Source: an uncultured delta proteobacterium
GTDB taxonomy: Bacteria > Desulfobacterota > Binatia > Binatales > Binataceae
Direction of reading: 5' to 3'
DNA length: 64,000 nucleotides
Assembly (NCBI GenBank): GCA_963842085.1
Contig: CAWJET010000001.1
Coordinates: 1,984,001 to 2,048,000, forward strand
Part shown: piece by piece, positions 27,582-30,692 of the stretch
Position numbering within the stretch: the first letter of the stretch is position 1
Layout of the letters: each line of letters opens with the position of its first letter
The notes under the pieces: model-generated
What the model was told of the DNA's origin: nothing
What the model saw: the letters and a program-made list of their open reading frames with translations, nothing else
The model's database searches: none
Position numbers and translations under genes: made by a program

Positions 27582-27952
27582 TTGCGCCCGGCGATTCGAC
27601 CGCTCAGATTGCGCGCAGCCATCGTGAGTTCATCGCTGATCGCCGCCGATTCGAGCGCAGCCGCGCCGCCGCGCGCAATCACGACGATCGAGGTCCCGGC
27701 GGGAAGCTCATCGCGAATAACCCGCCTGAAAATCTCGCGGACGCGACGCTTGACCCGGTTTCGCGTCACCGCGTTGCCGATCCTGCGCGAGACCGTAACA
27801 CCCAGCCGTGAGCGCGCCGGCTCGCCGCCGAGCTTGCCCGCGTAGAGCACGAAGTGGGGGCTCTGAAATCGCACGCCGTCGCGCTGGAGGCGCAAAAATT
27901 CCGCGCTTCGATGCAGCCGGTCCGCCGCCGCGAAGCTCAATTGCGCGCGCAC
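27578..27952 (-). CDS. rnpA: Ribonuclease P protein component
   Basis: RLGVTVSRRIGNAVTRNRVKRRVRE (RNR motif). Confidence 0.96.
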   Translation of the reverse strand: MRAQLSFAAADRLHRSAEFLRLQRDGVRFQSPHFVLYAGKLGGEPARSRLGVTVSRRIGNAVTRNRVKRRVREIFRRVIRDELPAGTSIVVIARGGAAALESAAISDELTMAARNLSGRIAGRK

Positions 27953-27958
27953 TGGAGG

Positions 27959-28117
27959 TTAGCCCGGCTGCTTGGGCGGTATCGAGATTGCGAGGCGCAC
28001 GCGGCCCTTGGCGCGGCGGCGCTTGAGCACCTTGCGTCCGCCCGGCGTGGCCATCCGCGCCAGGAATCCATGAGTTCGTTTGCGTCGGCGGTTGTGAGGT
28101 TGGTAGGTCCTTTTCAT
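27959..28117 (-). CDS. rpmH: 50S ribosomal protein L34 (52 aa, not in ORF track)
   Basis: [52 protein letters not shown]. Confidence 0.97.
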
Positions 28118-28399
28118 TGCTCGCAGCCAGCTTCACTCGGGGTTTGTATTCAGACCGATGGGGTCTGTTGCAGGTCGGGTGTCTTTCGTTCCGGCTTGAT
28201 CTCTTTCGGGTGGATTGATGTCTCGAACGACCCCGAACACGCAATCGAACCATACCACGCGCCTTTGAGCAAGCGGCAGGGTTCGCCGGTACTGGCGTCA
28301 TTCGGCCAAAAGACGCCACTGGGGCTGAAATGACGCCATCCATGTCGGACTCGCGAACGCTTCAATTTCGATGCTATTACTCCGACAATCGGAGAAGCG

Positions 28400-28684
28400 A
28401 TGCCGCCAGATCAACCAGAGAAACCGCCGCCGCCGTTTCCACCAAAAAAACTGGATTTGGAGCGGGCCGAACAGAAATTTGCGGAATTTTGGAAGGGTCC
28501 TGTTGTTTGTCCGATCTGCAAAACTTGGGAATGGCACTTCGGTCAGGACATTATTCATCTTTTGAATATCAACGTCCTGAGCGAAGCGACGCCCGGTGTA
28601 TATCCTTGTGTCGTTGTGATCTGCAACACCTGCGGATACACGATGCTCTTCAATGCCAAAAAGCTAGGCCTGGACAATGGCTGA
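28400..28684 (+). CDS. Small zinc-ribbon-like hypothetical protein
   Basis: GGAG RBS; CPIC...CNTCGY. Confidence 0.7.
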   Translation: MPPDQPEKPPPPFPPKKLDLERAEQKFAEFWKGPVVCPICKTWEWHFGQDIIHLLNINVLSEATPGVYPCVVVICNTCGYTMLFNAKKLGLDNG

Positions 28685-29021
28685 TAATCTTCCAAGCCGT
28701 CCTGGTTCGTCGGGCTCAAGAGATATTGATGAACGATATGAACGAATAGACACGCACTATTTTACCCATATGTCACAAACTCAAGCCGATGCGATGATCC
28801 AAGTCTCAAAAAATGAGCATGTCATTCCAGCCCGCCACGAAACATATCGAGCGTATGGACCAATTATTCTGGTAGGAATTTTACTGATCTTTTTGATTCC
28901 CCAATTTCTAGCGGCGAATCCCGACGCGAAAACTCTCGCATATCTCATCGCGGGAGTGATTGGAATAGTGGCCGCTGGTCCGACCGCCAAAGCCGTGATT
29001 GAAGCCCTCAGACGCTCTTAG
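28677..29021 (+). CDS. Small two-TM hypothetical membrane protein
   Basis: Overlaps the upstream gene; two C-terminal hydrophobic helices. Confidence 0.65.
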   Translation: MADNLPSRPGSSGSRDIDERYERIDTHYFTHMSQTQADAMIQVSKNEHVIPARHETYRAYGPIILVGILLIFLIPQFLAANPDAKTLAYLIAGVIGIVAAGPTAKAVIEALRRS

Positions 29022-29177
29022 ATTCGCGGCATATTTGTTCCCTTCCGGCCGCGTCCGACGATCAGTCTAAACCGCCGCGTTCCCGGTCGCAGCGTCGTTT
29101 CTGGCTTGCGCGGGATCGGCGGCACGTCTGACGGCTCGTTCGCCGCATTGGTCAATTCTCCGACCGACCAAATGTGG

Positions 29178-29651
29178 TCCGTTACGGGGGCGCGACATTA
29201 ACGATCCCCACAGAGAAACTGCGGCCGTGCGAAAGCGTTTTTGTCGGTCCCGCTTTACCTCAAGATTTTCAATACGTACAAAGGCGGTCCGCTCCCGAAA
29301 GATGATGATCTTGAAGCGGTGATCGAATCTTTTGGCGTCGCATCGAAGCAGACAAAGCGCGCGCGGCAGACTTTTCAACGATCCGCCGAACAAGCGAAAG
29401 TATTTAATGAGAAAAAAGATCGACTTGTTCTGCCTGCTGGTGTATCTCTCGACTTGACAACTCCCAATGGAGGAAAGGGTCGAAAGATGGAACAAACAAT
29501 TACTCAGACTTCGACAGGCGAAATAAATCCGCTGCTCGCATCACTCCTCGAAGAATTGCCAGCGAGTGGAGAATGGTCACGCGAGGAACACGATCTCTGG
29601 GCGCGAGTGTTTTGGCGGACTGTGGAGAAGCTAGTTAAAATCAAAGAATGA
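29178..29651 (+). pseudogene. 5'-truncated, frameshifted hypothetical gene
   Basis: GRDINDPHRETAA in one frame joins AKAFLSVPLYLKIF... in another frame near 29226; no proper start. Confidence 0.55.
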
Positions 29652-30007
29652 AGCCCCGTCACGCTGCCGCGTTCGCGCTTGTGGGCTGGTATCTGATGAT
29701 GCCGCCGATGCCACACGAAGAGGACTGGCAACCTGGCGGCCCGCCAGCTACAGCGTCACTCAGCGAATGGTTTATCTGGAAGTCGTTTGATACGGCTGAC
29801 GCATGCGAAAAAGCCAAGGATGCGCTTTTCTGGAGGGCGTCGGAAAGCAACTCAAATGACTATCATCGATGGCTGGCCGGTCGTGCGTCGTCAGACGACC
29901 TGCTTGACGAATGGGCGAGTACTTATAGCGGCGTCGCGGCCTTGAACGCTGCACTTAGGCAATCGCGTTGTATTGCTACCGACGATCCGCGGCTCAGATC
30001 AAAATAA
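29648..30007 (+). CDS. Small secreted hypothetical protein (MKPRHAAA...CIATDDPRL type)
   Basis: Signal-like N-terminus, two Cys; ATGA-coupled to the upstream ORF; stop codon lies inside the first right-end motif. Confidence 0.75.
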   Translation: MKPRHAAAFALVGWYLMMPPMPHEEDWQPGGPPATASLSEWFIWKSFDTADACEKAKDALFWRASESNSNDYHRWLAGRASSDDLLDEWASTYSGVAALNAALRQSRCIATDDPRLRSK

Positions 30008-30101
30008 GACACTCGCGGATTCAAATTCAGACACTCAGGGTCGAATTAAGACAGTACCGTTCGCCCCGCACCAGGAATAAGCAGAAGCTGCGGCGCTTGA
30101 A

Positions 30102-30692
30102 TCAATTCGAGGTTGGGGGTGCGGGGCTGGCCTGCGCGGGAGGGGCGGCGTCGGCGACGCCGAGGTCGTTGAGAATTTCGATCGCGTGGGTGGACGGATC
30201 GACGCTCGGATAGACCTTCAGGATCTTGCCGTTCTCGTCGATGACGTAGGTGATTCGGCGATCGAGGCCGAGGATCGGAATGCCGTTGGCGGCGCCGTAG
30301 GCCTTTGCAATCTTCTTGTCGGGATCGAGCAGGAGCGGGAACGGCAAGCCGTTCTTGCGGATGAAATCCTTGTGCGCCTCGGCCGAGTCGATGCTGCATC
30401 CGAGCACCACCAGGCCGGCGTTGGTATAGCGCGCGTAGCCGTCGCGGAACGCGCATGCCTCTTTGGTGCATCCCGGGGTTTCATCCTTGGGATAGAAATA
30501 GAGGACGACTTTTTTGCCGTGGAAATCGGCGAGCGAAACCGGGGCTTGGGTGTCGCCGGTAACCATCTGGGTGGTGAACGGCGGCGCAATTTCGCCTTCC
30601 TTGAGCAGGGTGGTGCGCGCGACGCGCGGGCGTATCGCGATTGCGAGGATGATTACGGCGATTGCGATTAGGCCTGCGGTGAACATTTTCAT
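30102..30692 (-). CDS. BCP/PrxQ-type peroxiredoxin with N-terminal signal
   Basis: YFYPKDETPGCTKEAC. Confidence 0.92.
   Translation of the reverse strand: MKMFTAGLIAIAVIILAIAIRPRVARTTLLKEGEIAPPFTTQMVTGDTQAPVSLADFHGKKVVLYFYPKDETPGCTKEACAFRDGYARYTNAGLVVLGCSIDSAEAHKDFIRKNGLPFPLLLDPDKKIAKAYGAANGIPILGLDRRITYVIDENGKILKVYPSVDPSTHAIEILNDLGVADAAPPAQASPAPPTSN

Follow-up and report, generated by a model that had tools for sequence, protein, structure and literature searches.

A probable transposase-deleted IS1-family derivative with passenger genes between bcp and rpmH of an uncultured delta proteobacterium

Closest Described Systems

IS1 is the textbook minimal insertion sequence (IS). Its copy IS1A from E. 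coli K-12 measures 768 bp, carries insA and insB with a frameshift, and ends in the tips GGTAATG and GGTGATG, both of the form GGnnnTG, the ISfinder rule for terminal inverted repeats of the IS1 family. Target duplications of IS1 are 8 to 9 bp long. In the classical IS1 subgroup, a programmed -1 frameshift joins insA and insB and the protein begins with a zinc finger; IS1 subgroups with a single-ORF transposase also exist. More elaborate ends are found in Mu, Tn7, and IS21, which have TG...CA ends and transposases of the Mu/retroviral-integrase type; Tn7 and Mu make 5-bp duplications. MIC231 is derived from IS231, a member of the IS4 family.

The concepts of mobile insertion cassettes (MICs) and transporter ISs (tIS) are set out in sections of PMC3129680, PMC9330008, and PMC7986276. 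The section on the IS6 family in PMC7986276 describes members of 700 to 890 bp with 14-bp inverted repeats and 8-bp duplications.

The locus described here is an element of 1771 bp at positions 28288 to 30058 of the window, the whole 64-kb stretch of DNA that was analyzed. It is best read, with a probability of roughly 0.85, as a transposase-deleted, passenger-carrying derivative of the IS1 family (a transporter IS), i.e., a mobile insertion cassette. The cassette is of a known kind, a dead IS1-type copy of a family with unusually elaborate ends. Like the MICs of those sections, it combines IS inverted repeats, a flanking repeat, and passenger genes with the absence of a transposase, and its intact relatives are ISs with passenger genes, as are the transporter ISs treated there. 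It differs from MIC231 in its IS1-like parent and in a 3' stub of the transposase gene, which shows an origin by internal deletion. With Mu, Tn7, and IS21 it shares several spaced recombinase sites per end and two ends of different build, whereas the family has GG...CC tips, an 8-bp repeat, and an IS1-type transposase; this likeness appears to be an analogy of design and not kinship. A previous reading of the locus, made from the sequence only, had proposed a non-autonomous transposable cassette, and the retention of both ends, six sites, and the flanking direct repeats without a transposase bears this out.

Limits, Tips, and End Sites of the Cassette

The tips GGTACTG (28288-28294) and CAGTACC (30052-30058) belong to a terminal inverted repeat of 21 nt with 81% complementarity, the longest inverted repeat within 28100-30300. 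The G+C content is 46 to 59% in the interior of the element, compared to 61 to 70% outside. Both tips are abutted by GTTCGCC (Table 1), an ordinary 7-mer in the window with 12 copies on the plus strand and 17 on both strands compared to 20.8 expected. From these counts over 64 kb, the chance of equal 7-mers abutting both tips is ~2e-4. The coordinates given for repeats, tips, and motifs in the sequence-only reading are exact to the base. The check that it proposed, a scan for paired ends with 7-bp duplications, finds many complete copies in relatives, with repeats mostly of 8 bp. The flanking repeats of 50 inverted-repeat pairs in related loci are exact at 8 bp in 36 cases and at 9 bp in 2; none has the 7 bp of the window copy, and the 12 pairs without a repeat include chance pairs. 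The repeat of the related locus L016 contains one mismatch. Loss of one base in the CCC or GG run of the junction, or an atypical cut, would explain the 7-bp repeat.

Table 1. Coordinates of features of the cassette in the window
Feature	Position	Strand or orientation	Remarks
Left flanking direct repeat GTTCGCC	28281..28287	no strand	Read from sequence; chance ~2e-4
Transposase-distal end	28288..28340	+	Tip GGTACTG; GGCGTC-type site core; 96% identical to L065 distal end, 93% to L015
Distal site 1	28291-28305	+ orientation	Position weight matrix match
Distal site 2	28306-28320	inverted	Abuts site 1
Distal site 3	28326-28340	inverted	Weakest matrix score of the six
ORF1, passenger gene	28400..28684	+	94 aa; two CxxC pairs (zinc-ribbon-like); Zn_ribbon_13 E 0.0035, below cut-off
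ORF2, passenger gene	28677..29021	+	114 aa; hydrophobic C-terminal half; overlaps ORF1 by 8 nt
3' remnant of IS1-family transposase gene (VTDHIWSVGEL...GTNMPRI + stop)	29018..29185	-	~260 N-terminal codons gone
Zone of the internal deletion junction	29186..29225	no strand	Between two 3' gene remnants; homology limits
3' remnant of gene divergent from transposase gene (ORF3)	29226..29651	+	Family A1 alignment; mechanical ORF3 start 29241
ORF4, small-protein family (MKPRH...GWYLM...DDPRLK)	29648..30007	+	119 aa; frequent passenger beside proximal end
Transposase-proximal end (conventional IRL)	29999..30058	-	Sites 29999, 30021, 30041 in same orientation; tip CAGTACC
Right flanking direct repeat GTTCGCC	30059..30065	no strand	Read from sequence

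Each end contains three sites of 15 bp with a spacing of roughly two turns of the helix, an arrangement that reproduces the canonical site layout of related elements. The right-hand triplet corresponds to the direct-repeat family D1, with spacings of 22 and 20 bp, and by IS convention this "right" end of the window copy is the IRL. As the sequence-only reading had seen, the outermost left copy alone is flipped. A position weight matrix built from 76 sites of 13 related elements, all of them in other genomes, was scanned over both strands of the window. Its best five hits are the sites at 30041, 30021, 29999, 28291, and 28306, with 22.3, 21.5, 20.7, 17.1, and 15.5 bits, respectively. The top hits are thus five of the six motifs of the sequence-only reading; the sixth, at 28326, scores 11.6 bits and is outscored by three isolated hits in the window at 13.2 to 13.6 bits.

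The two ends show different affinities. The distal end is nearest to those of L065, L015, and L085 (96%, 93%, and 91% identity), elements to which the transposase stub is also nearest. The proximal end, with a site core of the GTCT(T/G)A type, is nearest to the proximal ends of L083 (90%), L092, and L082 (90 to 86%) and has no match among the proximal ends of the L065/L015/L085 group. The window copy is thus a mosaic with ends of two site types, presumably formed before the last move of the element. A transposase of one specificity may hence fail to act on both of them, and their pairing would mean cross-recognition between types or two transposases acting jointly.

Interior Genes and Internal Deletion

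The sequence-only reading had listed small hypothetical genes and a gene fragment in the interior. This agrees with four ORFs on the plus strand, and the fragment can now be identified: it is the 3' part of a gene for a transposase. Searches of the four ORFs against Pfam, PHROGs, PADLOC, and NCBIfam gave no match above cut-off, Pfam at E <= 1 returned no family except weak zinc-ribbon hits for ORF1, and an Rfam search of 27900-30300 gave 0 matches at E <= 1. The DNA of ORF1 has no match in 13 related elements, and a protein homologue of ORF2 is found in the cargo of L065, downstream of the L065 transposase gene. ORF4-type genes adjoin the proximal end in 7 of 31 elements. The ORF4 family comprises 503 database homologues, none functionally named and none with a Pfam domain, with one JGI label as YfaP/DUF2135. 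The cargo of the elements includes a lineage-specific small-protein family spread by them.

On the minus strand, 29021-29185 codes for the C-terminal ~55 residues of the transposase, and this remnant shows 83% DNA identity with L015. On its other side, ORF3 can be aligned with the A1 family in the C-terminal half alone; the N-terminal ~115 aa, including the winged-helix region, are missing. The homology of ORF3 extends in frame upstream of its mechanical start to ~29226, with a stop codon at 29199. In the A1 family (211 to 357 aa), the N-terminal part of the profile resembles the winged-helix (wHTH) domain of Csa3 (E 5e-4), and in 13 of the 30 related elements compared, a gene of this family and that of the transposase diverge.

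The two 3' remnants in the window face outward and lie ~40 bp apart, and intact elements carry both genes in divergent orientation. The arrangement shows that one internal deletion took away the 5' part of each gene together with the spacer between the two. Compared to L091, the loss comes to about 1.4 to 1.5 kb, which gives a progenitor of ~3.2 kb. This progenitor lost ~1.4 kb in a single event that spared both ends, ORF1, ORF2, and ORF4.

In the slot that separates the transposase gene from the proximal end, 14 of 31 elements have an A1 family member and 4 have a gene for a P63C-domain protein, whereas L015 and L017 have ORFs with a weak likeness to HARE-HTH. The P63C-domain proteins, of 357 to 372 aa (E down to 6e-29), take the slot of the winged-helix gene in L082, L083, L086, and L092. 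An obligatory accessory protein encoded in the proximal slot was considered and rejected; the occupants of the slot are mutually unrelated.

Assignment to the IS1 Family

The window fragment corresponds to residues 261 to 314 of the intact transposase of L017 in a tblastn search, with 68.5% identity. L017:8218-12118 is a complete element of 3901 bp with the 8-bp repeat AACGGCTC and a transposase ORF of 315 aa at L017:9564-10508. Its transposase passes the cut-off of the Pfam model DDE_Tnp_IS1 (PF03400) with 34.3 bits against 24.1. In BLASTP with InsB of IS1A from E. coli K-12 (E 1e-7), the motifs DEQW, (S,T)DG, and ERxNL...FSK align. The protein has 3640 homologues at E <= 1e-20; of the 120 that were listed, many bear the JGI or NCBI name "IS1 family transposase". 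Against the NCBIfam IS1 equivalog NF033558, it scores 62.5 bits, below the cut-off of 100 (E 5e-17), over model positions 44-167 only. This score points to a distant IS1 branch, and the part absent before model position 44 would be the IS1 zinc finger. The first 60 residues contain a helix-turn-helix and no CxxC pair, which sets the protein apart from the classical IS1 subgroup. A weak match to rve_3 (E 0.019) stays below the cut-off.

The IS1-type likeness comprises the DDE transposase motifs, the Pfam IS1 domain, the GGnnnTG tips, and, in the relatives, 8-bp duplications. The window copy has GGTACTG at both tips, which also fits GGnnnTG. Since its stub (residues ~261-314) falls outside the Pfam IS1 domain, the membership of the window copy itself rests on the 68.5% identity of the tail and on the shared ends. 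The clade differs from IS1A in its size of 2.3 to 5.2 kb with one long ORF, in passenger genes on both sides, and in ends that each carry three spaced sites, arranged asymmetrically. Most intact copies listed have a transposase of one ORF of 296 to 315 aa, and the InsA/InsAB' frameshift layout is absent from the clade. Several points count against the preferred explanation as a whole: the 7-bp repeat, ends of two types, the lack of an empty site, the sub-cut-off NCBIfam score, and the missing InsA/InsAB' layout.

A derivation from the IS6/IS26 family, with its GGnnnTG-like tips and 8-bp duplications, was weighed against the IS1 assignment. The tips of some relatives begin with GGCACTGT, as IS26 presumably does, and GG..CTG tips are common to both. 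IS6 members make 8-bp repeats, as stated in the section on that family (PMC7986276). They are, however, only 700 to 890 bp long with 14-bp inverted repeats according to the same section, compared to 2.3 to 5.2 kb and 60-bp multi-site ends here. The intact transposase of the clade has no IS6-type hit in Pfam or NCBIfam at E <= 0.1, whereas IS1 models hit it. This leaves the IS6/IS26 derivation highly improbable.

The sequence-only reading had held the family to be unassignable and favored an undescribed system, perhaps one for gene capture. A system with a recombinase of its own would fit the absence of multi-site asymmetric ends within 40 nt of each IS1A end and the fact that such ends were not found described for the IS1 family in the literature searched. 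Against it, an IS1-type transposase is the sole shared gene in 30 of 31 elements with these ends, and the window itself keeps the 3' end of the gene. The fragment encodes the tail of a DDE transposase of the IS1 family and the tips fit the GGnnnTG of IS1A, so that the family can be named. A match of the ends to a described IS family is one of the outcomes that the sequence-only reading had itself listed as refuting it; gene capture finds no support, and an undescribed transposon or gene-capture system deserves hardly any credence.

Related Elements and Covariation of Sites with the Helix-Turn-Helix

Intact relatives measure 2.3 to 5.2 kb and carry the same ends, a single-ORF DDE transposase of 313 to 315 aa with an N-terminal helix-turn-helix, and passenger genes both before and after that ORF. 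This answers the question, raised with the first description of the cassette, of which recombinase sits inside the larger copies: it is an IS1-type transposase. The tips of the relatives read GG(T/C)(A/G)(C/G)TG. Within the genus, 39 of 47 genomes contain matches to the transposase, a tally that includes the unpublished genomes G018 and G023, as do the bcp/rpmH flank survey and one flank alignment described below; none of the conclusions depends solely on these two genomes. Outside the genus, matches are found in Alphaproteobacteria, Planctomycetota, and Acidobacteriota, with relatives of ~30% identity in Methanosarcinales; the Planctomycetota relatives are more distant and have no site arrays. 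In L015:7794-8740 (G001:C40, an otherwise complete element of 3472 bp), a frame change of one base interrupts the transposase within its catalytic region, after the second D and before the E motif; the gene is probably a pseudogene rather than a case of programmed frameshifting.

Direct site copies at the proximal end, which lies upstream of the transposase gene, together with inverted ones behind the tip site at the distal end are present in 21 of 31 elements scored, the window copy included. The layout is found at one end only in 3 and at neither end in 7, five of these in the more distant GGTAGTG-tipped clade; the control rate is ~0.05 hits per interior segment. The sites lie at offsets of +24/+46 or +34/+56 in the proximal end and +12/+34 or +22/+43 in the distal end.

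In all 20 array-bearing elements, the helix-turn-helix variant of the transposase matches the site type: HRD goes with GTCCTAA in 11, NRN with G(T/G)CTTAA in 5, ERN with GGCGTCA in 3, and NRG with GGCC in 1. This correspondence suggests that the helix-turn-helix reads the end sites, although each type is also a clade and the match is confounded by shared ancestry. Several transposase protomers would then bind the sites via the helix-turn-helix and build an asymmetric synaptic complex, after which the DDE domain would cut at the GG tips and join them to staggered target cuts.

No description of asymmetric multi-site ends in the IS1 family was found in the papers searched, nor any mention of ISMhu11. 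It is conceivable, at less than even odds, that the window copy is the fossil of a large, maybe undescribed IS1-family clade with passenger genes, Mu/Tn7-like ends of 3 + 3 sites, and at least four helix-site specificity types. Members of the clade occur in Ca. Binataceae, Alphaproteobacteria, and Acidobacteriota. An IS1 branch with 60-bp multi-site asymmetric ends, 2 to 5 kb of cargo, and helix-site covariation would offer a natural system for the diversification of end specificity.

Insertion Site between bcp and rpmH

As part of the best explanation, the copy very probably inserted 13 bp beyond a conserved rpmH promoter block, between bcp and rpmH. Alignments of 13 rpmH-upstream and 9 bcp-downstream regions show conservation as far as GAGCAAGC(GGCA) in the former and as far as the stop codon of bcp in the latter. 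The block upstream of rpmH (window 28118-28280) is kept up to GAGCAAGC in 13 of 13 aligned relatives, and each lineage differs beyond it.

The empty bcp-rpmH site that had been expected from the sequence did not turn up in relatives, in metagenome contigs, or in four sequencing runs. Adjacency of bcp and rpmH was found in none of the same-genus relatives with both flanks listed, and the two genes lie 51 to 259 kb apart in relatives that have both on one contig. Because no relative has an empty site, insertion into a pre-existing bcp-rpmH spacer is deduced from the flanking repeat alone. Scanning metagenome contigs for an exact match to 24 bases of the right flank gave 0 hits. Contigs of the runs X1, X4, and X7 (three soil runs of two studies) bridge a junction in occupied form. 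A joint that skips the element or an excised form was found in none of the Logan contigs of 4 of 8 runs containing the stretch; run X8 covered only 16 of 30 bins, and this survey is not informative on the absence of an empty site. The contigs of X1 and X7 show a one-base deletion at 29132, in the transposase stub, and G>A at 29576, and represent strain variants of the occupied locus.

These flanks bear on a second origin of the locus, a rearrangement scar. Two different copies of the family, the first situated upstream of rpmH and the second downstream of bcp, would have recombined via their shared interior; the two loci would have been fused with a hybrid element between them, and the 7-bp repeat would be coincidental. 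Such an event would account for window ends from different sublineages, for the distance of 51 to 259 kb and the lack of listed adjacency in relatives, for the variation among relatives past the rpmH promoter block and past the bcp stop, and for a repeat of 7 bp compared to the 8 bp of the family. An exact 7-mer against both tips, however, would arise with a chance of only ~2e-4, and since both neighborhoods vary in all relatives, the adjacency of bcp and rpmH may predate the insertion. The scar is therefore considered unlikely, and insertion of an IS1-family element remains the preferred reading.

Two further relatives, L021 (G016) and L014 (G004:C6), carry a decayed proximal IS end 14 to 17 bp past the rpmH block, in the orientation opposite to that in the window. 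These decayed ends suggest a target that was hit more than once or a place where synteny breaks. A replication origin at the local GC-skew turn was considered as well and rejected; the global minimum is found at C1:1,974,774, and dnaA is 70 kb away.

State of the Family in This Genome

The genome is reported as 100% complete in 2 contigs. It contains no intact IS1-type transposase: tblastn finds only the window remnant and one further remnant in a miniature element of 487 bp, and a search with PF03400 gave 0 matches. Because the genome has no cognate transposase, the window copy is stranded and now immobile. Mobilization in trans, which the sequence-only reading had assumed, does not apply to the present genome.

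A census of the genome with the weight matrix of the relatives gave 10 site clusters, compared to 0 to 1 in three shuffles; the clusters are the two ends of this element and eight solo ends. Tip pairs with flanking repeats are limited genome-wide to this element, the 487-bp miniature element, and two GC-rich pairs due to chance. The array of the right end is present at other places in the same genome, and longer complete elements with the same ends are found in same-genus relatives. No other complete copy with array-type ends exists in this genome, and L001-L003, the loci around its other left-type ends, contain no complete element. The eight solo ends and the miniature element show that the family is extinct here. 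For this genome, an apparently unknown mobile system is thus reduced to a stranded IS1-family relic.

The miniature element (G000:C1:2472967-2473453) has perfect 17-bp inverted repeats GGTAGTGTCCTAATTTG and an 8-bp repeat CAATAACG. A decayed stretch within it corresponds to transposase residues 227 to 298 of the GGTAGTG-tipped clade.

Genes similar to ORF4 are scattered through the genome. The first ~60 nt of these genes (MKPRHAAALALVGWYLM; window 29648-29706) show 79 to 94% DNA identity within the genome (blastn E < 1e-3) and 85 to 94% across species, compared to 24 to 49% protein identity for the remainder of the gene. By tblastn, 17 ORF4-like loci are found, 8 of which have a cluster of IS end sites no more than 700 bp away; one tandem run lies at C2:1653574-1654625. 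A repeated unit of ~100 nt (GGAACGGGCCAGCGAGGGAGGGG...AGCCAGCGATC) is located before two of the solo IS ends and after one gene of the ORF4 type, at the loci G000:C2:1042400-1042720, C1:552050-552140, and C1:561200-561250.
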